DNA of 64,000 nt from a virus. A program made the translations under genes and the position numbers. Under the pieces are notes generated by a model, which ran no database searches, was not told the DNA's origin, and was given only the letters and a program-made list of their open reading frames with translations. Where the stretch lies: IMG/VR virus record IMGVR_UViG_3300049216_000067; one strand, written 5' to 3'. The stretch's first letter is position 1, and the number at the start of each line of letters is the position of its first letter. Below, piece after piece: positions 2,059-14,676 of the stretch.

Positions 2059-2649
2059 TTAGTTCAACTTGTAAGCTGGATTTTTCCAGACCCTCGATGA
2101 CTTAGGAATCTTCGAAAGCAAATATTCCATCTGATCGTACAACACTTTATGGTTGTCCAAAAGAAGCTTTTCCTGCAAGTTAGGTGCATACGGAACATAC
2201 AACAATTGCATACCTGCTTGTTCCGGTGTCCTGTCTGCTTTACCGTGATTACATGACTTGCAAGCAGAAACAGTGTTCACCCAAGTGTGACGACCACCAT
2301 GAGACTTAGGAATCACATGGTCAATAGTCAACTGATTGTACTTGAATTGAATTCCACAATATGCGCAGATGTAAGCATCACGAGCATAAAGAATATCACG
2401 CTCAGCATAAATCGTTTCTCGTGTGTAGAAATCTCGTCCAAACACAGGACCGTCAACCATAATGATTGAAGAGACTTCAATCTTTGATCGTTCACCCTTA
2501 GAATTCATGCCACCATAGAAAGTGTGAACAGGAGAACCAAGATTACAGATGACCTTACCCAAAGCGTAGTAACGCGCAGACTCTTCTTCGAGTCCGGTCC
2601 ATTCGCGTGGGTTTCCTGATTTGTCAACAACGAGAACTTCTTTCGACAT
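2059..2649 (-). CDS. HNH endonuclease
   Basis: RD.YICAYCG, TIDHVIPKSHGG, NTVSACKSCNHGK. Confidence 0.9.
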   Translation of the reverse strand: MSKEVLVVDKSGNPREWTGLEEESARYYALGKVICNLGSPVHTFYGGMNSKGERSKIEVSSIIMVDGPVFGRDFYTRETIYAERDILYARDAYICAYCGIQFKYNQLTIDHVIPKSHGGRHTWVNTVSACKSCNHGKADRTPEQAGMQLLYVPYAPNLQEKLLLDNHKVLYDQMEYLLSKIPKSSRVWKNPAYKLN

Positions 2650-2704: not shown

Positions 2705-2779
2705 TGGAGTACTGGACTGGATTCGAACCAGCATGGGACTATTTTGCAGACAGCCGCGTGACCTTTCCGCCACCAGTAC
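2705..2779 (-). tRNA. tRNA-Cys(GCA)
   Basis: Cloverleaf, U73, CCA. Confidence 0.9.
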
Positions 2780-2801
2780 ATTCGTAAGGAGTATAACTTT
2801 G

Positions 2802-3122
2802 TTATCGAGCTATGACAAGGTTCTTTGGAGGGACTTCAATTTTCGTCTTTCCATTGATCTTGTTGTAATGAGCTAGAATCTGATCTTCTGGCTCAGTAAT
2901 GTAGACAATCTTATCTTCAAGAATTTCAATCTCTTCTTTTGCCAAAGTTCCCCATGGAATGAAAGCAAACATGATCTGCGTCTTACCGGCTGCATCAGGT
3001 GGTCCCTGCTGTGGGATAACAAGAATCGCATCTGTAAGTGAATAACCTGTTTTTAAGGTTTGAACAGTTGCAAGTAATTCTTCACCAGTAACAAGCTTGA
3101 TTAATTTGACGCTAGATTCCAT
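2802..3122 (-). CDS. Conserved T4-like phage hypothetical protein (Sm-like fold likely)
   Basis: VKLIKLVTGEELLA...FIPW...Y pattern typical of T4-like phages. Confidence 0.6.
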   Translation of the reverse strand: MESSVKLIKLVTGEELLATVQTLKTGYSLTDAILVIPQQGPPDAAGKTQIMFAFIPWGTLAKEEIEILEDKIVYITEPEDQILAHYNKINGKTKIEVPPKNLVIAR

Positions 3123-3146
3123 GATAATTCCTTTAGGTAAAGCTTT

Positions 3147-3169
3147 ATTATACAGTATTTTTGTTTAAT
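3147..3169 (-). promoter_or_regulatory. Promoter ATTAA-N12-TATAAT
   Basis: Member of recurrent promoter class (see findings). Confidence 0.6.
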
Positions 3170-3176
3170 AAGAAAT

Positions 3177-3252
3177 TGGAGCGGATGAAGGGACTCGAAC
3201 CCTCGACATCTTCCTTGGCAAGGAAGCGCAATAGCCGCTATGCGACATCCGC
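3177..3252 (-). tRNA. tRNA-Gly(GCC)
   Basis: Cloverleaf, CCA. Confidence 0.92.
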
Positions 3253-3258
3253 GTAAAC

Positions 3259-3333
3259 TGGTGCTCCAACACAGAATCGAACTGTGACTTGGTCCTTACC
3301 AAGGACCTGTAATAACCATTTTACTATAGGAGC
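3259..3333 (-). tRNA. tRNA-Thr(GGU)
   Basis: Cloverleaf, CCA. Confidence 0.9.
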
Positions 3334-3391
3334 GATACATTCAGATTATCCTTTTAATTGCGACTGTTTCCCCCCCCCCCCGCAATGGATT

Positions 3392-3465
3392 TGGTGGTCG
3401 TACTAGGAATCGAGCCTAGGTATCTTCCATGTCATAGAAGTGTTCTACCATTGAACTATACAACC
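3392..3465 (-). tRNA. tRNA-Val(GAC)
   Basis: Cloverleaf, variant T-loop, CCA. Confidence 0.85.
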
Positions 3466-3473
3466 AAAACCGT

Positions 3474-3650
3474 TTAGTGAAAGCCGTGCAAATACGGCAA
3501 CAGTTGGACTACCAACCATATGACCAACGCAACGATGGCAACACCGTTTAGAATTTGCTTGAACGTTTCCTGCAAAGGAGCCTTATTGACAAGCCATAGC
3601 AAAAAACCTGCAACAAAAATCACAATCAAAATGTGGATAATGTCCACCAT
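3474..3650 (-). CDS. Small two-helix membrane protein (Thivi_2564-like)
   Basis: Two hydrophobic segments; GGAG RBS. Confidence 0.65.
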   Translation of the reverse strand: MVDIIHILIVIFVAGFLLWLVNKAPLQETFKQILNGVAIVALVIWLVVQLLPYLHGFH

Positions 3651-3683
3651 AAATTTCTCCATTGTAAATTAAACGTTCGAAAT

Positions 3684-3759
3684 TGGTCCCCTTGCCAGAA
3701 CTCGAATCTGGAATAAAACGTTCGTAGCGTTTCGTGATATCCGGTTTCACCACAAGGAG
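3684..3759 (-). tRNA. tRNA-Arg(ACG)
   Basis: Cloverleaf, CCA. Confidence 0.9.
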
Positions 3760-3840
3760 AGATACTGGTTACGTTTCCAGTTCATGTAGGATCATCTGGT
3801 TTGCCTAAGCCTAACAGATAAACACTCGCCATGACGATTT

Positions 3841-3913
3841 TGGTAGCGGTCGCTGGTAATGCTCCAGTTCTACAGGTTATGAGCCTGTCGTCAACTTTTT
3901 CGACTTCCCCGCT
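3841..3913 (-). tRNA. tRNA-Met(CAU), atypical
   Basis: ACAGG-CUCAUAA-CCUGU arm, CCA; non-canonical T-loop and acceptor mismatches. Confidence 0.7.
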
Positions 3914-3925
3914 ATAATCTTTATA

Positions 3926-4246
3926 TGATGTTTGGTGCTGATTTTTCGAGTAGTTGTCAAGCTACTATCTTTCTTTTTAGGTCCGGTGGGTTTATGACTT
4001 ACACATCTCCACTCTGTTGCAACAAAGTTTCGCAGATATGAGAGGAATTTTCCTCCAACGTAGTCGTCTTCTGACTGTTTATGGTCTACCAACTACGCAG
4101 CGATCACAGGCGGGTTCCGTCTTTTTCCTGTTACTTTCTGTCATTACCTTACCTAATCATACTCAAACCTTCTCGACAGCCCGTGAGAAGTACCTTCCTG
4201 CCGAAGAACGCAGTTTATCAGTCACAAAAAACCAACCCAAACATCA
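3926..4246 (-). ncRNA. Unassigned ~320-nt structured RNA
   Basis: ~22-bp terminal helix plus multiple internal hairpins; sits between two tRNA genes. Confidence 0.7.
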
Positions 4247-4254
4247 CATTAAAC

Positions 4255-4329
4255 TGGTGGTGATACTGAGAATCGAACTCAGATCTATGGCTTATGAGAC
4301 CACTGCCCTAGCCGTTGGACGATATCACC
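4255..4329 (-). tRNA. tRNA-Met or Ile2 (CAU)
   Basis: Cloverleaf, CCA. Confidence 0.85.
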
Positions 4330-4420
4330 GTAAATTGTTGGGACCTATCGCTGCCCGTGCGAGTATTTTACGAATAATACCATTCGTCTCTACAAACACT
4401 GACGCTCGTTGAGAAGTAAT

Positions 4421-4496
4421 TGGTGGAACTGGTAGGAGTCGAACCTACATCTCGTCCTCTTCAGGGACACGCTAAAGCCACCTCAGCTACAGTTCC
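4421..4496 (-). tRNA. tRNA-Phe(GAA)
   Basis: Cloverleaf, CCA. Confidence 0.9.
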
Positions 4497-4501
4497 AAAT
4501 T

Positions 4502-4578
4502 TGGTGCCCAATGAGGGAGTCGAACCCTCAAAACCCAGCTTCTTAGACTGGTACGTATGCCAATTCCGTCAACTGGGC
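4502..4578 (-). tRNA. tRNA-Leu(AAG), short variable loop
   Basis: CCAGU-CUAAGAA-GCUGG; Leu-type D-loop GGAAUUGGCAUAC. Confidence 0.85.
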
Positions 4579-4587
4579 AAATAAAAT

Positions 4588-4664
4588 TGGTGCGCCTGAC
4601 AGGAGTCGAACCTGCAAGATTTTGGTTCTAAGCCAAACATGTTTGCCAATTTCATCACAAGCGC
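4588..4664 (-). tRNA. tRNA-Leu(UAG), short variable loop
   Basis: Cloverleaf, CCA. Confidence 0.88.
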
Positions 4665-4670
4665 ATAATT

Positions 4671-4756
4671 TGGCGGAAAGCTGACGAATCGAACGCCACA
4701 AGTTTCCCTGCGATGTGCTTTCTAGACACTCAGAGACCCAGTCTCTATAACTTTCC
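4671..4756 (-). tRNA. tRNA-Ser(AGA)
   Basis: Loop CU-AGA-AA, long variable arm, G73 CCA. Confidence 0.82.
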
Positions 4757-4760
4757 AAAT

Positions 4761-4846
4761 TGGCGGAAGTGTGACGAATCGAACGCCACTAGCGAACCAG
4801 CGATCAGTTTTCAAGACTGCCCTCATCCCAGACGAGATACACTTCC
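4761..4846 (-). tRNA. tRNA-Ser(UGA)
   Basis: Long variable arm, G73 CCA. Confidence 0.88.
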
Positions 4847-4851
4847 AAAAT

Positions 4852-4927
4852 TGGGGCGGCTAACGGGACTTGAACCCGTACTGACTCTTTCACAGAGAGT
4901 GGTGCTAACCATTACACTATAGTCGCC
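4852..4927 (-). tRNA. tRNA-His(GUG)
   Basis: G-1:C73 pair, CCA. Confidence 0.92.
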
Positions 4928-4933
4928 ATAAAT

Positions 4934-5007
4934 TGGATCATCCTCTAAGATTCGAACTTAGGTCACTACTTTCAGAGAGTAGGGTACTGCCGCTGTACGA
5001 AGGATGA
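4934..5007 (-). tRNA. tRNA-Gln(CUG)
   Basis: U1-A72, cloverleaf, CCA. Confidence 0.9.
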
Positions 5008-5014
5008 ATAAACT

Positions 5015-5089
5015 TGGTGTTCCTAGAGGGAATCGAACCCTCGTCGTGGGACTGAGAAACCCACATCCTAGCCTCTAGAAGATAGGAAC
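5015..5089 (-). tRNA. tRNA-Glu(CUC)
   Basis: Glu-type D arm, loop UU-CUC-AG, CCA. Confidence 0.82.
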
Positions 5090-5094
5090 AAATT

Positions 5095-5202
5095 TGGCCC
5101 CTCAGAATGGATTTGCACCACCTTCGTCGGCAAGGACGACGCTCTTTTAAATGATCCACCCGGACATGTGATCAAACAATCTTCTTTTGAGCTACTTCGG
5201 GA
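5095..5202 (-). ncRNA. tRNA-like RNA with hairpin inserted in D-loop
   Basis: GCUC/GAGC D-stem enclosing ~40 nt, CGUCG/CGACG arm, T-like arm, GCCA end. Confidence 0.55.
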
Positions 5203-5250
5203 AATAAAGAAAGACATTTTGGCTCTAATTGCCTGGTGTGTTTCACTAAA

Positions 5251-5324
5251 TGGTCAGGATAGCAGGAGTTGAACCTGCGCCGCGAGCTTCCAAAACTCGA
5301 ACGCTACCGTAACGCTTTACCCTG
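5251..5324 (-). tRNA. tRNA-Pro(UGG)
   Basis: C1-G72, CCA. Confidence 0.88.
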
Positions 5325-5395
5325 AGATGCGTGAATGACCTGGGTCAATCACGACTTTTGTGTCCCGCTTAGATTTGTCTAGCGGCTCGCACGTT

Positions 5396-5472
5396 TGGTG
5401 CCCAATGCGAGAGTCGAACTCGCAAAACCGAATTTTTGAGATTCGTATGTATGCCAATTCCATCAATTGGGC
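5396..5472 (-). tRNA. tRNA-Leu(CAA), short variable loop
   Basis: Cloverleaf, CCA. Confidence 0.88.
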
Positions 5473-5482
5473 GAACTTAAAT

Positions 5483-5558
5483 TGGATCACCGTGTACGAT
5501 TCGAACGTACATTTTCCTCGTTCAAAGCGAAGCGTCCTACCAATTAGACGAACAGTGA
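5483..5558 (-). tRNA. tRNA-Gln(UUG)
   Basis: Cloverleaf, CCA. Confidence 0.9.
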
Positions 5559-5565
5559 ATAAACT

Positions 5566-5640
5566 TGGCGATCCCAAGGAGAATCGAACTCCTACTTTCT
5601 CTTAGACAGAGAGAAATCATAGCCATTAGATCATGGGACC
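5566..5640 (-). tRNA. tRNA-Asp(GUC)
   Basis: Cloverleaf, G73 CCA. Confidence 0.9.
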
Positions 5641-5646
5641 ATAAAG

Positions 5647-5721
5647 TGGTACGTCTACACGGACTCGAACCGCGATTCTCCGCTAATCAGGCAGATGTCT
5701 TTGCCATTGGACGATAGACGC
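5647..5721 (-). tRNA. tRNA-Ile(GAU)
   Basis: Cloverleaf, CCA. Confidence 0.88.
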
Positions 5722-5724
5722 ATA

Positions 5725-5877
5725 TTAAAGTGAAAGCAATTCTCGTAGAGAATTAAATCTCTTTCCTGATTCATCAAGAAAGTAGACTTGGACAGTTTTT
5801 CCACCATCAACGACTGTGCATCGAGTGATGTGTTTACCGTCTACTACGATTGGATATTTTCTAGTGATCTGAGCCAT
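5725..5877 (-). CDS. 50-aa protein inside tRNA array (not in ORF track)
   Basis: TAAGGAG RBS; MAQITRKYPIVVDGKHITRCTVVDGGKTVQVYFLDESGKRFNSLRELLSL fills the inter-tRNA gap. Confidence 0.65.
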   Translation of the reverse strand: MAQITRKYPIVVDGKHITRCTVVDGGKTVQVYFLDESGKRFNSLRELLSL

Positions 5878-5897
5878 GAGAAAATCTCCTTACTGAT

Positions 5898-5973
5898 TGG
5901 TGGGTCCTGTGGGGTATGATCCCACATCTCTGCGCTTAAAAGGCGTGACTCTTTCCATTTGAGTTAAGGACCC
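5898..5973 (-). tRNA. tRNA-Lys(UUU)
   Basis: Cloverleaf, variant T-loop, CCA. Confidence 0.85.
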
Positions 5974-5977
5974 GAAT

Positions 5978-6025
5978 TGGAGCGGCACCGACAGGTTAGT
6001 GTCGTAAGCTCTAGAACCGTGCCGC
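5978..6025 (-). ncRNA. 48-nt tRNA minihelix-like RNA with Gly-type acceptor
   Basis: GCGGCAC/GUGCCGC + UCCA, CGACA/UGUCG stem, no D or anticodon arm. Confidence 0.6.
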
Positions 6026-6031
6026 ATAAAG

Positions 6032-6106
6032 TGGTTGACCCTGAGAATTTCGAAATCTCGACTTTTGCCGTGTAAAGACAACGCTCTGCCTCTGAGCTAA
6101 GGGTCA
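6032..6106 (-). tRNA. tRNA-Val(UAC)
   Basis: Cloverleaf, CCA. Confidence 0.88.
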
Positions 6107-6112
6107 ATAAAT

Positions 6113-6188
6113 TGGTGTCCCGAACAGGAATCGAACCTGTACCTTAACGCTTAGGAGGCGTAAACATTATCCATTGTGCTACCGGGAC
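6113..6188 (-). tRNA. tRNA-Arg(CCU)
   Basis: Cloverleaf, CCA. Confidence 0.88.
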
Positions 6189-6193
6189 GTAAT

Positions 6194-6276
6194 TGGCTCT
6201 CTCGGAAGGATTCGGACCTCCATCACTTACCGTTCGCGAAAACGGCAGTAAGCTCTCGATATTGAGCTACAAGAGA
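6194..6276 (-). ncRNA. tRNA-like RNA with elongated anticodon arm
   Basis: Normal acceptor/D/T arms, GCCA; arm UUAC-UG-CCGUU-UUCGCG-AACG-GUAA. Confidence 0.6.
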
Positions 6277-6283
6277 ATAAACT

Positions 6284-6367
6284 TGGTGGCTCTGATGGGA
6301 TTTGAACCGCATAGCCTTCTGGTTTGATGCTATCTAACCTGACGCTCTACTATTGAGCTACAGAACC
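6284..6367 (-). ncRNA. tRNA-like RNA with enlarged anticodon loop
   Basis: Acceptor GGUUCUG/CAGAGCC, ACCA; GGUU-AGAUAGCAUCA-AACC arm. Confidence 0.6.
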
Positions 6368-6372
6368 GAAAT

Positions 6373-6447
6373 TGGAGCGGAAGACGAGACTCGAACTCGT
6401 ATACTCTTGGTTGGAAGCCAGGGGCACAGCCTTTGTACCACATCCGC
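6373..6447 (-). tRNA. tRNA-Gly(UCC)
   Basis: Cloverleaf, U73 CCA. Confidence 0.9.
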
Positions 6448-6453
6448 ATAAAT

Positions 6454-6528
6454 TGGTACTCCGTAGGGGTGTCGATCCCCTTCCTACGCCTTGAAAGGGC
6501 GTCGATCTAGCCGGTAATCTAACAGAGC
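6454..6528 (-). tRNA. tRNA-Glu(UUC)
   Basis: Cloverleaf, CCA. Confidence 0.88.
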
Positions 6529-6722
6529 ATAATCCGATATTTTAGCGTCGGCTTTAGCGCATTTTTGGGGCAGACCTAAGTCTAACCACTCCACCATCTA
6601 GTTTTTGAAAACTAGAAAATTAAAATGTGATCTACTCACCCTCTCACCATACTGAACCGAGAGAGGCTACGAAATGGTTCAGCCTGGATAGCTACTTGTA
6701 GATCTTTGCTATCGTATGATCG

Positions 6723-6798
6723 TGGTCAAGGTGGCGAGACTCGAACTCGCGATTCCATGCGCCCAAGGCATGTGGTATAGCCGCTAACCGACACCCTG
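6723..6798 (-). tRNA. tRNA-Pro(UGG), second divergent copy
   Basis: Cloverleaf, CCA. Confidence 0.9.
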
Positions 6799-6904
6799 AA
6801 AATATATTGAACCGGTTACGTCATCCGGTGTTGCTTGCGGCAACCGTAATGCCCACTCCTGCCGGGTGGTGGGCTGTCTCTACCCGCAAGATAGAGACTT
6901 TGTT

Positions 6905-6983
6905 TGGTGCCTCCAGCGGGAGTCGAACCCGCAAGTAACCCGCGTTTTAAGTGCAGTGCATATGCCAATTCTGCTACAGAGGC
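6905..6983 (-). tRNA. tRNA-Leu(UAA), short variable loop
   Basis: Cloverleaf, CCA. Confidence 0.85.
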
Positions 6984-6987
6984 GATT

Positions 6988-7083
6988 TGGTAGTCCCACC
7001 AGGACTCGAACCTGGATCATGCGGTAATCTGCCGCCAAAGCCACTTTATAAGGGTGGTGTTTTAACCATTAAACTATAGGACC
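6988..7083 (-). tRNA. tRNA-Ile(UAU) with long variable arm
   Basis: Loop CU-UAU-AA; variable arm GCGG-CAGAUUA-CCGC; CCA. Confidence 0.82.
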
Positions 7084-7088
7084 GAATT

Positions 7089-7179
7089 TGGTGGTGCATC
7101 CAGGTAACGATCCTGGCTAGGCTTATTAGGCTCACCGGTTTTACAGACCGGTCCCCATCCTTAAGGGTTTTACTGCACC
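7089..7179 (-). tRNA. tRNA-Tyr(GUA)
   Basis: Long variable arm, CCA. Confidence 0.85.
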
Positions 7180-7186
7180 ATAATTT

Positions 7187-7261
7187 TGGACCCGCTGGCC
7201 GGATTCGAACCGACGTTCATTGAGGTAGAAGCTCAAGGCACATCCTCTATACCACAGCGAG
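7187..7261 (-). tRNA. tRNA-Arg(UCU)
   Basis: Cloverleaf, CCA. Confidence 0.9.
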
Positions 7262-7593
7262 ATTATTTCTTTCTTCGTAGTGTACGATAGCGTGACAATT
7301 GGCACGCAGCACAACGCACTTCGCGATTTCTTCTTTCATCCTATGAATTGAATAGCCTTGCTTATGCATTTGGCTAATTTCAATATCTTTTTGTGATGGA
7401 TCAGAATGATGAAATTGCAATGTTGCCGGATGATTTTGTCCACATTTAGCGCACATTAAATTTTTTTGAATTCTTGAATCCATTCTTTCAATATAGATCG
7501 TCTTTCTTTGATTTTAGAGATTGCATGTTGTTGGTTCTTAGCGTACCAATCTCTACGAGATTGTCTGACTTTTTTTATATTTCTTATCGACAT
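7247..7593 (-). pseudogene. Small HNH-family endonuclease, frameshifted in an A7 run
   Basis: MSIRNIKK...EWIQEFKK joins CAKCG..LQFHH..ANCH frame if one A is added at 7461-7467. Confidence 0.65.
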
Positions 7594-7595
7594 GA

Positions 7596-7629
7596 CTCCA
7601 AACCTTATTTTGTTGTTTGGAGTATTTAG
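7596..7629 (-). promoter_or_regulatory. Late promoter plus RBS-occluding hairpin
   Basis: CTAAATA followed by CTCCAAAC-N11-GTTTGGAG ending 2 nt before ATG. Confidence 0.6.
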
Positions 7630-7706
7630 TGGCAGGTTGTGACGGTGACGATCCGCCTTTGATAGTTTTGGAGACTACGGTCTTAGCCAACGTAGACGAA
7701 CAACCC
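7630..7706 (-). tRNA. tRNA-Trp(CCA)
   Basis: Cloverleaf, G73 CCA. Confidence 0.88.
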
Positions 7707-7712
7707 ATAAAT

Positions 7713-7787
7713 TGGTGCTCTCACTCGGAATCGAACTGAGTTCTCAGGCTTACAAAACCCGTGCATCGCCAACAATGCTTTGAGAGC
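7713..7787 (-). tRNA. tRNA-Thr(UGU)
   Basis: Cloverleaf, CCA. Confidence 0.9.
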
Positions 7788-7827
7788 GTAACGACGGTTC
7801 TCTACTCTAGTACCGACAACACGTATT

Positions 7828-7901
7828 TGGTGGACCGTGAGAGAATCGAACTCTCAATAGTGACTTGCAAGGCCACTGTTATCCCATTTAACTAACAGCC
7901 C
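7828..7901 (-). tRNA. tRNA-Ala(UGC)
   Basis: G3-U70, CCA. Confidence 0.92.
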
Positions 7902-7907
7902 AAATTT

Positions 7908-7983
7908 TGGTGGGTCCGCAGGGATTTGAACCCTGATCGTGCTCCTTAAGAGGGAGATATAATAGCCGTTATACGACAGACCC
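7908..7983 (-). tRNA. tRNA-Lys(CUU)
   Basis: Cloverleaf, CCA. Confidence 0.9.
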
Positions 7984-8048
7984 GAATAAGACCATAACAA
8001 TCCGCGCCAGGGTGAAGCGTTTCTAATGTTATGGATAAAACCCTGCAA

Positions 8049-8119
8049 GATCCTTGACAGGAATTGAACCTGCTTCTCCCGATTCAAATTCGGGCGACTT
8101 ACCGTTTGTCTTCGAGGAC
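8049..8119 (-). tRNA. tRNA-Gln(UUG)-like, no encoded CCA, possibly degenerate
   Basis: CCCGA-AUUUGAA-UCGGG, good T arm, one acceptor mismatch. Confidence 0.6.
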
Positions 8120-8250
8120 AGATCTTTTTTACGTGTTAGTCTCACGATCCGGACTCGGACATTAGGATTCAATAATGGAACTGTTGGCACATACGATGAC
8201 GAGTCGATGTTTAGGTTGTCAGCCTTAGTCAACAGTTCCGCGTTAATTTT

Positions 8251-8322
8251 CTCCAGCACAAGGAATCGAACCTTGCCACAAATCGTTAACAGCGATCCCG
8301 CACACCTTGCGCGTCTACTGGA
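8251..8322 (-). tRNA. tRNA-Asn(GUU), no encoded CCA
   Basis: U1-A72, G73, loop CU-GUU-AA. Confidence 0.85.
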
Positions 8323-8340
8323 ATAAATCGAAAATAAAGT

Positions 8341-12551: not shown

Positions 12552-12735
12552 CGTCTGAACGATAACTATCAAATTCCTCGTCTTCGTCAGCGTTATCTGC
12601 CTCTTCAATTGTTTCACCACAGAATGCACAATGTGATGGGTCACCAGAGACACCATGCTTAGCAAACCTAATCGTGTATTCTGAGTCACAATTCTCACAG
12701 ATGATGCTGAGACTCTTTTTCTTTTCAATTGCCAT
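12541..12735 (-). CDS. Zinc-ribbon protein
   Basis: CENC...CAFCG, acidic tail. Confidence 0.65.
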   Translation of the reverse strand: MAIEKKKSLSIICENCDSEYTIRFAKHGVSGDPSHCAFCGETIEEADNADEDEEFDSYRSDDDE

Positions 12736-12744
12736 AATTTATCC

Positions 12745-14676
12745 TTAAAGTTCGCAAACACCGCTTACACATGCAAGTGTTTTTGTATTTTCAGTATTGT
12801 CTTGCTCTTCTTTGAATTGCTTCCAATCAAAATTAACGTTTTGAGTAGCTAACAATTCATTGTACTTGGCTTCATCAATTTCCTCATACGGAGCCTGACG
12901 GTAAGTACCGGTGTCTCTTGGCAAGAATGAAACACCTGATAATCTATCAATATGTTTGTAAACCCAAGAACCAACTTCTAGCCATTCATCTTCACCAACA
13001 TATACGGTTATTGATGGCTTGTGTTCACACCAGTTGTCTTGAAAAACAAGCCAATGTTCAAGCTGCTGAATAGCAGTCATATCTTTAACAAATCTACTAC
13101 CTTCAGGTGCTTTCATTGGGAATGAAAATACCCATGAAGACTTGTTGTAGAAATCCTCTTCAGCCTTGTAACCGTTGTCCATCATGAACTGACCCAGTGG
13201 ATCGGTTTTTCCAAGTCTTACTCTACGTATATAGTACGGAGCGTAACGTGGGTGAATTCCAGATGCAGAATCAACCAGCTGAGAGACAGTGCCAGATGGC
13301 TTGACGCATGTAATAGCTGCTGAATGTTCGATATCCAAGTAATCAGCAAATTCAATGTTGGTCTTCACTGCTAATTCACGCAAATCTTTCAATGTCGGAG
13401 CAAGGTTTGCGTTGATTCGGCCTGTCAATCCAGCACCAGGAAACGGGCCATAATCATTACCATTCAATAAAGAATGATCCATGATGCCAGTCAAGCTAAC
13501 ACCCAACAATCTTTCTTCTTCGGTGTTCTTTTTCCACTTCTTGTTGATGTAGCGAAAGTCAGATACCGTACTCTGCAATGTTCCAAGGATCGTCGCCAAA
13601 CGCACCTTACGAGACAAGTCTTCTTTGGTGTCAGTTGCTCGAACAACCACTTCGGTCAAGTTACAAAACTGATATGGACGAAGAATGATTTCAGAACATG
13701 GGTTAGTACCGTAGTCTATATCCGGATCACGACGACCATACTGTGCAGCAATAAGCTGTGATGCCTTACGAGAAAAAATTCCTCGCTCACCAGAATGAGA
13801 ATTGTAAAGAGCCAACCATTCAGCCATGAACGTACCTATATCCGGCTTATCTTCATAGACTGCGCTGATATTGGCAAGTGCGCGCTGATTGTTATCGAGC
13901 CACCAGTTACCTGACTTGGATAGACGCATTTTATCGTCATTCAAATCAGTGAGGCTAATCAAAGCAGAACGACGGACACCACCGGACACGATTACATCAG
14001 CAACTTTACAGACAAGATCATGACACTCAATTGGCGTCAGTTTACGACCTTTAGCTTTGTTGAACAAAATGATCGCAAATTTCAAAAGATCCACTAATGG
14101 TTCTGGTCCGCTAGCTCTTCCTCCAAAAGTTTTGAGCCTAGCACCAGCTGGGCGCAAGAGACTGACATCCCATTTCGCAATCTTTCCAGAATATAGGAGT
14201 GATATAAATTCACGAAAGCCAGATGCCCATCCAAGTTTGGAGTCCTTAAAGACAACGGTGGTATCTGTTTCGTGGAGTTCATCTGGTACCTCAGGAAGTT
14301 TATTTGTGTAACGAGATTCAACACTAAATCCAACACCGCAACCACAGCTAAGCAAATACATGATTTCATCAAATGCTTTTTGACTATCGATTGGAAGGTA
14401 TGAGCAATTATAACCAGCAACTTGATCCTTCTCTAAAGCAGGACCAGCAGTCATCAAAGATCTCATAGATGGCATAACTTCAAGATTCAAAATAGCTGAA
14501 CGAAGTTCGTCCCATGGAATCTTTCTTGAACCTGTTTTGGTGCGAGCCTTAAAAAAATCTATGTAGCGATCTACAGTTTCTTCCCAGGTTTCTCTTCTTC
14601 CTAAATCGTCGCGGTAACGAGCGTAATGACCGACATGAATAAACTGTTGATAAATGGTAGGCAACTCAACCGCCAT
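12745..14676 (-). CDS. nrdJ: Class II (adenosylcobalamin) ribonucleotide reductase
   Basis: NPCSEI, KPSGTVSQL, HKPSIT, C-terminal CVSGVC; no adjacent beta subunit. Confidence 0.85.
   Translation of the reverse strand: MAVELPTIYQQFIHVGHYARYRDDLGRRETWEETVDRYIDFFKARTKTGSRKIPWDELRSAILNLEVMPSMRSLMTAGPALEKDQVAGYNCSYLPIDSQKAFDEIMYLLSCGCGVGFSVESRYTNKLPEVPDELHETDTTVVFKDSKLGWASGFREFISLLYSGKIAKWDVSLLRPAGARLKTFGGRASGPEPLVDLLKFAIILFNKAKGRKLTPIECHDLVCKVADVIVSGGVRRSALISLTDLNDDKMRLSKSGNWWLDNNQRALANISAVYEDKPDIGTFMAEWLALYNSHSGERGIFSRKASQLIAAQYGRRDPDIDYGTNPCSEIILRPYQFCNLTEVVVRATDTKEDLSRKVRLATILGTLQSTVSDFRYINKKWKKNTEEERLLGVSLTGIMDHSLLNGNDYGPFPGAGLTGRINANLAPTLKDLRELAVKTNIEFADYLDIEHSAAITCVKPSGTVSQLVDSASGIHPRYAPYYIRRVRLGKTDPLGQFMMDNGYKAEEDFYNKSSWVFSFPMKAPEGSRFVKDMTAIQQLEHWLVFQDNWCEHKPSITVYVGEDEWLEVGSWVYKHIDRLSGVSFLPRDTGTYRQAPYEEIDEAKYNELLATQNVNFDWKQFKEEQDNTENTKTLACVSGVCEL

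Follow-up and report, generated by a model that had tools for sequence, protein, structure and literature searches.

A compact structured RNA in the tRNA array of an uncultured T4-like myovirus

In the 64,000-nt stretch of viral DNA analysed here (the window), the minus strand between positions 3923 and 4249 carries the gene of a ~327-nt RNA, a length that includes the whole of its terminal helix P1. We consider it probable (roughly 0.6) that this RNA is a previously uncatalogued, compact and pseudoknotted stable noncoding RNA, which would be freed from a tRNA precursor and act in trans. The first-pass annotation of the DNA had placed a highly structured RNA of ~320 nt at positions 3926-4246. 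The MFE structure of the minus strand, the consensus fold and the covariation bear this out, with a small correction of the extent: the terminal helix proposed at that stage is present, comprises 25 bp and runs 3 bp past the ends reported before.

Genomic context and relatives

The window stems from an uncultured T4-like myovirus that encodes a gp43-type DNA polymerase, a gp23-type major head protein, a DnaB-like helicase, a ribonucleotide reductase and an SbcC-like subunit. The identity of its polymerase to those of cultured phages does not exceed 42%, the cyanomyoviruses being nearest. ARAGORN located 33 tRNA genes at positions 2705-8323, all of them on the minus strand. The RNA gene has the same orientation as every tRNA in the window, and the abundance of G-U pairs in the fold settles that its strand is minus.

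Two relatives were found in viral contigs via a nearby HNH protein: L001 with 96.5% identity across the RNA and L002 with ~70%, the latter a contig of 166 kb. A degenerate pattern based on the invariant 3' hairpin retrieved the metagenome sequence QGNH01001285.1 (L019), whose locus begins inside the RNA and is without the 5' third. L001 and L002 keep the order tRNA(CAU)-RNA-tRNA(CAU) or tRNA-like element, and L019 shows the downstream half of it.

The RNA fills the spacer 3' of tRNA-Met(CAU) and 5' of an initiator-like CAU cloverleaf, with gaps of 5 nt on the upstream side and 9 nt on the downstream side (Table 1). Its position between two CAU tRNAs, as described earlier, is correct, with the qualification that only the upstream tRNA is canonical; the downstream element is degenerate in the window, and a canonical CAU tRNA (51 bits) occupies its slot in L002. 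The element starts with GCGGGG, contains a CUCAUAA anticodon loop and an A1-U72 pair, and has stems that we take to resemble those of initiator tRNA. Its D loop comprises 5 nt without GG, and its T loop reads AGCAUUA. ARAGORN and Rfam miss the cloverleaf because both loops are non-canonical. Covariation of its T stem is seen in both L001 and L019.

We found no conserved ORF in the RNA stretch. The ORFs vary by lineage and their products cannot be aligned, in agreement with the earlier statement that a credible ORF is lacking. No partner protein adjoining the RNA gene was evident.

Table 1. Coordinates of the RNA elements, flanking tRNA genes and long tRNA-Ile genes (positions in the window unless a locus is named)
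Feature	Position	Strand	Remark
Upstream tRNA(CAU)	4255..4329	minus	canonical, 62 bits; complete
P1, 5' strand	4225..4249	minus	25-bp terminal helix; pairs with 3948-3923; shifted register in L002
P2 hairpin (P2a + P2b)	4192..4222	minus	loop 4207-4203 UCUUC, engaged in PK-B
P3 hairpin	4169..4190	minus	4 of 6 pairs compensatory; loop 4179-4175 CUGUC, engaged in PK-A
Junction strand UUUGAGUA	4160..4167	minus	invariant
P4-P5-P6, 5' strands	4140..4156	minus	long-range, close inner five-way junction; 8 of 14 pairs compensatory
Junction strand AGAAAGUA	4132..4139	minus	invariant
P7 hairpin, 16-nt loop	4106..4131	minus	4121-4117 GACGG pairs with P3 loop (PK-A)
Junction strand GAUCGCU	4099..4105	minus	UAUCGCU in L019
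P8 hairpin	4058..4098	minus	bulges GGUAGA (4090-4085) and GUCA-GAAGA (4075-4067)
P9 hairpin, A-rich 5-nt loop	4041..4056	minus	
P10-P11 hairpin	4002..4040	minus	apical loop self-complementary
P6-P5-P4, 3' strands	3977..3998	minus	partner of 4140..4156
Junction strand GAAAGAU	3967..3973	minus	invariant
P12 hairpin, loop CUUGACAA	3949..3966	minus	loop invariant
P1, 3' strand	3923..3948	minus	internal ACCA not kept in L002 or L019
Downstream initiator-like cloverleaf, CAU loop, ACCA end	3841..3913	minus	fold; slot conserved in L002
Long tRNA-Ile(UAU) genes	window 6988-7083 (minus); L002 8334-8429; L007 11200-11295; L008 3732-3823; L012 1831-1929		ARAGORN

Secondary structure

The minus strand folded with an MFE of -96.6 kcal/mol (z = -3.5), and none of 100 shuffled sequences was as stable. 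The plus strand folded less well, with z = -1.9. The L002 homologue, folded alone (z = -3.2), took up this architecture too, and its terminal helix was long and free of interruptions. RNAalifold, applied to the three full sequences, gave 12-13 nested helices. All internal stems that had been listed from the window, namely CUUCUC/GAGAAG, ACAGG/CCUGU, CGUAGUUG/CGACUACG, GAGGAA/UUCCUC, CAUAUCU/AGAUGUG, ACUUUGUU/AACAGAGU and AGUAG/CUACU, are part of both the MFE structure and the RNAalifold consensus. The suggested long-range pairing UAGGU/ACCUA is real as well; five of the nine pairs that it forms jointly with a neighbouring GGU/ACC stem show compensatory changes. The other long-range candidate, GACUG/CAGUC, can form in every sequence, yet it has zero covariation and clashes with the better-supported P2a and PK-C (see below).

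In this fold, P1 seals both ends of the molecule, and a five-way junction within it bears P2, P3, P12 and the long-range stem P4-P6. The latter closes a second, inner five-way junction, from which P7, P8, P9 and P10-P11 emanate. Of the two bulges in P8, GGUAGA is near-invariant (GGUAGU in L001), and the 3' bulge GUCA-GAAGA serves as the docking site for the loops of P2 and, as a candidate, P12. The 5' strand of P8 together with its bulge (4085-4094, minus strand) reads AGUUGGUAGA, which is presumably the same string as one that is common in tRNA D loops, and AGUCGGUAGA in L002. This segment may be derived from a tRNA or may mimic a D loop.

Covariation and conservation

Covariation was evaluated on a four-row alignment (A5) of the full sequences from the window, L001 and L002 and the partial sequence from L019. 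It rests on about three independent lineages because the L001 copy is so similar to that of the window. For the nested fold, 94% of the cells in A5 pair, and 34 of the 93 pairs are changed on both sides. Slid controls, in which the 3' partners were moved by 1-3 columns, yielded 2-7 two-sided changes, and 0 of 500 shuffles matched the observed value. Even at 96.5% identity, L001 and the window differ in P2 and P8 through compensatory exchanges. The 'broken' look of P1 in L002 is spurious and arises from MAFFT, which misregisters the outer half of the helix in that sequence.

Window and L002 are identical at 53% of the helix positions and at 73% of the unpaired positions. About 40 junction nucleotides are invariant, their strands being kept while the helices drift. 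Fixed junctions combined with drifting helices are the mark of selection for an RNA fold and not for a protein or DNA site.

Loop-loop contacts

We examined every column pair of the alignment for stacks that pair in all sequences; two covarying helices between loops emerged. PK-A connects the loops of P3 and P7 and changes from CUGUC/GACGG to CCAUA/UAUGG; two of its pairs are compensatory, and a third differs on one side only. PK-B connects the P2 loop with the 3' bulge of P8 and changes from UCUUC/GAAGA to CCUUC/GAAGG, with one compensatory pair. Shuffling of the unpaired columns produced a mean of 0.1 such stacks, and a stack with at least two covarying pairs occurred in 0.4% of the shuffles, a level at which PK-A is significant only after post hoc removal of two weak inner P3 pairs, one of which is broken in L002. 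Beside PK-B, the GUCA of the P8 bulge can pair with UGAC in the P12 loop. This candidate, PK-C, is invariant in all four rows, and the P12 loop probably pairs with the 9-nt bulge of P8. The contacts suggest a picture of the RNA as a closed globule, in which the 5' hairpins would be clamped onto the core domain.

With PK-A, PK-B and PK-C added, 95% of the cells pair. The homologues collected since the first annotation establish that the fold is conserved, with 37 of 105 pairs changed on both sides versus 2-7 in the slid controls. This covariation largely refutes the notion that the stretch has no function and represents decayed tRNAs, a chance structure or a short protein gene. One could invoke the D-loop-like string AGUUGGUAGA in P8, the degenerate tRNA-like elements in the array, and the existence of ORFs of 71 and 53 codons; however, neither ORF is conserved, no tRNA match was obtained in the RNA stretch at E<=10, and the 37 compensatory pairs and invariant junctions argue so strongly against it that we regard a lack of function as extremely improbable.

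Covariation does not separate contacts within one molecule from contacts between copies. The RNA might accordingly self-assemble through L3-L7, L2-P8 and L11 contacts between molecules, giving dimers, rings or cages in the manner of ROOL, GOLLD, manA and phi29 pRNA. Homo-oligomers held together by kissing loops occur among phage RNAs near tRNA islands (PMC12286853; bioRxiv 10.64898/2026.07.01.735769). The apical loop of P11 (4017-4022, minus strand) is palindromic in both lineage groups despite its changed sequence (UUGCAA and CGGCCA), which may be taken as a hint, but no more, of a homodimeric kissing loop. Two palindromic 4-mers among ~7 loops would, however, arise by chance with p~0.03, a rough estimate rather than a computed value, and all contacts are sterically plausible within a single molecule. 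We therefore consider self-assembly unlikely.

Distribution

A blastn search with the window and L002 versions against 50,697 cultured-phage records gave no match, and sequence look-ups of the stretch did not hit another genome. Four DNA patterns run on viral contigs returned only L001 and L002 together with nine chance matches, which were rejected by R1, a covariance model of the 194-nt core only. One pattern scan of metagenomes yielded only L019 and L018, the latter being the contig of L001, and the scan of genome contigs gave 0 matches. R1 detected no RNA in 11 loci with a GGQ protein, with the filters off too. Distant relatives of a 106-aa DUF6561-like protein encoded in the array are present in at least 71 viral contigs, and none of these contains the RNA according to R1 (71 loci, 653 kb). 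Neither the patterns, applied to viral, metagenome and genome collections, nor R1, applied to ~1 Mb of related phage DNA, revealed a fifth lineage. We conclude that the family is real and, as far as exact-pattern scans and a model of the core can detect, rare. This rarity allows for a lineage-specific or dispensable role, and the occurrence in four lineages limits both the generality and the statistical depth of the results.

Comparison with known RNA families

Searches of Rfam 15 at gathering thresholds returned tRNAs only, and at E<=10 the isolated stretches of the window and L002 gave nothing credible. GOLLD, ROOL, RNase P, tmRNA, SRP, 6S, introns, HEARO and the known ribozymes were excluded on this basis. 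The comparison with GOLLD, ROOL, tmRNA and introns, which the first-pass annotation had proposed as a check, was thereby carried out and matched no family. Its suggestion of 'a new or reduced large ncRNA class' divides into two parts. A new class is supported by the covariation and the negative Rfam result, whereas a reduced GOLLD or ROOL is unsupported because not even a partial match to RF01998 or RF03087 was obtained.

GOLLD and ROOL are phage RNAs located near tRNA islands that form RNA-only cages, and GOLLD env-38 lies downstream of tRNA-Met (PMC12286853). GOLLD (RF01998) resembles the present RNA in being large, ornate and pseudoknotted and in occurring in phages and prophages near tRNA islands (PMC12286853). 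The location typical of GOLLD is found here too, as the RNA resides inside the 33-tRNA array directly after tRNA-Met. Many GOLLD members, however, exceed 800 nt, whereas the window RNA has ~327 nt and shows no sequence or structure match. ROOL (RF03087) likewise occurs in phages and prophages near tRNA islands, has multiple pseudoknots and is without a known protein partner (PMC12286853). It comes from rumen and Lactobacillales phages, whereas the window RNA belongs to a T4-like lineage, has about half the ROOL length and does not match the model. Both families are thus longer, as had been remarked at the outset, and the likeness to them is one of genomic setting and ornateness rather than of homology.

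The T4 RNAs rnaC and rnaD (species 1 and 2) are also stable RNAs, encoded in a tRNA cluster on the tRNA strand beside a homing endonuclease gene. They comprise 139 and 119 nt, and rnaC ends with a tRNA-like T arm. Homology was rejected, since the R1 core model detects nothing similar within the tRNA region of T4. Bacterial RNase P RNA (RF00010/RF00011) is similar in size, in the terminal helix joining both ends, in its purine-rich invariant junctions and in its tRNA context. It was discarded because neither model matched and a P4 helix from CR-I (GGAAAGUC-type) and CR-V (ACAGAA...GGCUUA-type) is missing; the only conserved long-range stacks in the RNA are PK-A, PK-B and PK-C, and P4 motifs are absent from it (they are present at 394-609, see below).

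A tmRNA was dismissed in view of the negative ARAGORN and Rfam results and of the 3' ACCA, which is not conserved in L002 or L019. A group I or II intron gave no Rfam match either, and the RNA is intergenic next to a complete tRNA(CAU). HEARO or an IscB omega-RNA was rejected as well: Rfam showed no match, and the nearby 196-aa HNH protein contains only HNH domains and is encoded 1.3 kb away, behind five tRNAs. We conclude that the RNA is a new family among the structured RNAs of phage tRNA islands.

An RNase P-like RNA in the same phage

A 216-nt segment at 394-609 on the minus strand of the window contains the RNase P P4-type strands GAGGAAGUUCGCUG and ACAGAACAGCGGCUAU (CR-I/CR-V type), which covary with those of a copy in L002 (~12640-12890). 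It is almost without a specificity domain and went undetected by Rfam at E<=10. Judging from these sequence features, the phage appears to have a minimal RNase P RNA of its own, which occurs together with the 327-nt RNA in the window, L001 and L002.

The co-occurrence and the near-absent specificity domain of the RNA with covarying P4-type strands raise the question whether the 327-nt RNA supplies that domain in trans or acts as a cofactor of the miniature RNase P RNA. In the L002 version of the 327-nt RNA, we noticed by eye the sequence GUAAGGGUAGAAAGU, which we take to resemble CR-III of RNase P. This stretch, however, is partly made up by the covarying helix P6 and differs in the window. 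Moreover, the 327-nt RNA matched no RNase P model at E<=10, its two five-way junctions are unlike the P7-P14 topology, and covarying complementarity between the two RNAs was at the level of shuffles (4 matches versus 1.6 expected). Such a partnership is in our opinion very improbable.

Biogenesis and possible role

According to our preferred model, the 327-nt RNA would be transcribed within a polycistronic tRNA precursor. In L002, tRNA-Phe and tRNA-Met lie directly upstream of the RNA and only 5 nt apart, so that there is no space for a promoter of its own, and no terminator-like site was found on the minus strand of the window between 3650 and 4400. The ends would then be generated by 'tRNA punctuation'. 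Processing of the tRNA-Met 3' end would set the RNA 5' end, 5 nt away, and an RNase P cut at the 5' end of the initiator-like element would set the RNA 3' end, 9 nt away. The downstream element is thus a probable RNase P site fixing the 3' end. In the window lineage it may serve mainly as a processing signal because its D and T loops have decayed.

In the eukaryotic nuclear MALAT1-mascRNA system, a tRNA-like element is the signal for 3'-end processing. The arrangement predicted here is similar in that a non-decoding cloverleaf, placed just 3' of a long structured RNA, would enable RNase P to fix where that RNA ends; it differs in that the element derives from an initiator tRNA and is a normal tRNA in one lineage.

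Once released, the 327-nt RNA would be expected to persist as a stable particle because both ends are buried in the 25-bp helix P1, and to work in trans, not as a regulator in cis. Its constant position directly upstream of an initiator-type CAU element would also be compatible with a cis-acting 5' leader that affects the folding, processing or amount of the downstream tRNA and is degraded later. tRNA leaders, however, are normally short and unstructured. The 25-bp end-sealing helix and the closed globular fold are traits of stable RNAs, and we detected no pairing between the RNA and the tRNA-like element. We hold the leader model for very unlikely.

Few RNAs are both large and tightly folded and have many invariant nucleotides in their junctions. 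In the past, such RNAs have proved to be ribozymes, riboswitches or, lately, RNA-only cages. The ~40 invariant junction nucleotides are indicative of a pocket for specific binding or catalysis, and the extent of this core favours a specific partner or a chemistry. By analogy with GOLLD and ROOL, a role in the tRNA and translation take-over module of the phage appears most likely because a full tRNA set, the RNase P-like RNA and a protein with a GGQ/RF-1 domain (encoded at 1132-1530) are all nearby.

A bolder reading, which we put forward tentatively as a minority view, is that the 327-nt RNA is an active machine and not a passive stable RNA. It would either assemble into a multimer through its covarying kissing loops and the palindromic L11 loop, like a small version of GOLLD or ROOL, or serve as a ribozyme or cofactor alongside the phage RNase P RNA lacking a specificity domain, with the full tRNA set of the phage as its substrate. 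If this were true, the virus would carry an RNA-only module for tRNA maturation and handling. That the RNA is a ribozyme with a novel chemistry of its own, for instance on tRNAs, is suggested by analogy, since its complexity (13 helices, 2-3 tertiary pairings and the invariant junctions) is on the scale of large ribozymes. No known ribozyme family matches, however, and the context suggests no reaction besides tRNA processing, which makes this quite unlikely.

In any case, the RNA adds to the evidence of undescribed structured RNAs in phage tRNA islands. With ~330 nt, it is compact enough for cryo-EM and chemical probing and offers a tractable case for elucidating the role of such RNAs.

Additional features of the tRNA array

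Between the tRNA-like element and tRNA-Arg(ACG), an 82-nt spacer (3760-3840, minus strand) shows a weak fold (z = -1.9). In L002 and L019, tRNA-Arg lies directly at the matching place, and the spacer may represent the remains of a tRNA gene or some other small RNA. The array further contains an HNH homing-endonuclease gene at 2059-2649 (minus strand, 196 aa), comparable to segB in the T4 tRNA cluster, and the embedded gene of the 106-aa protein at 2802-3122 (minus strand), whose match to DUF6561 is weak. The tRNA-Ile(UAU) genes called by ARAGORN in the window and in several related phage loci measure 92-99 nt (Table 1). They are ~20 nt longer than normal and may contain an intron or an extra arm.
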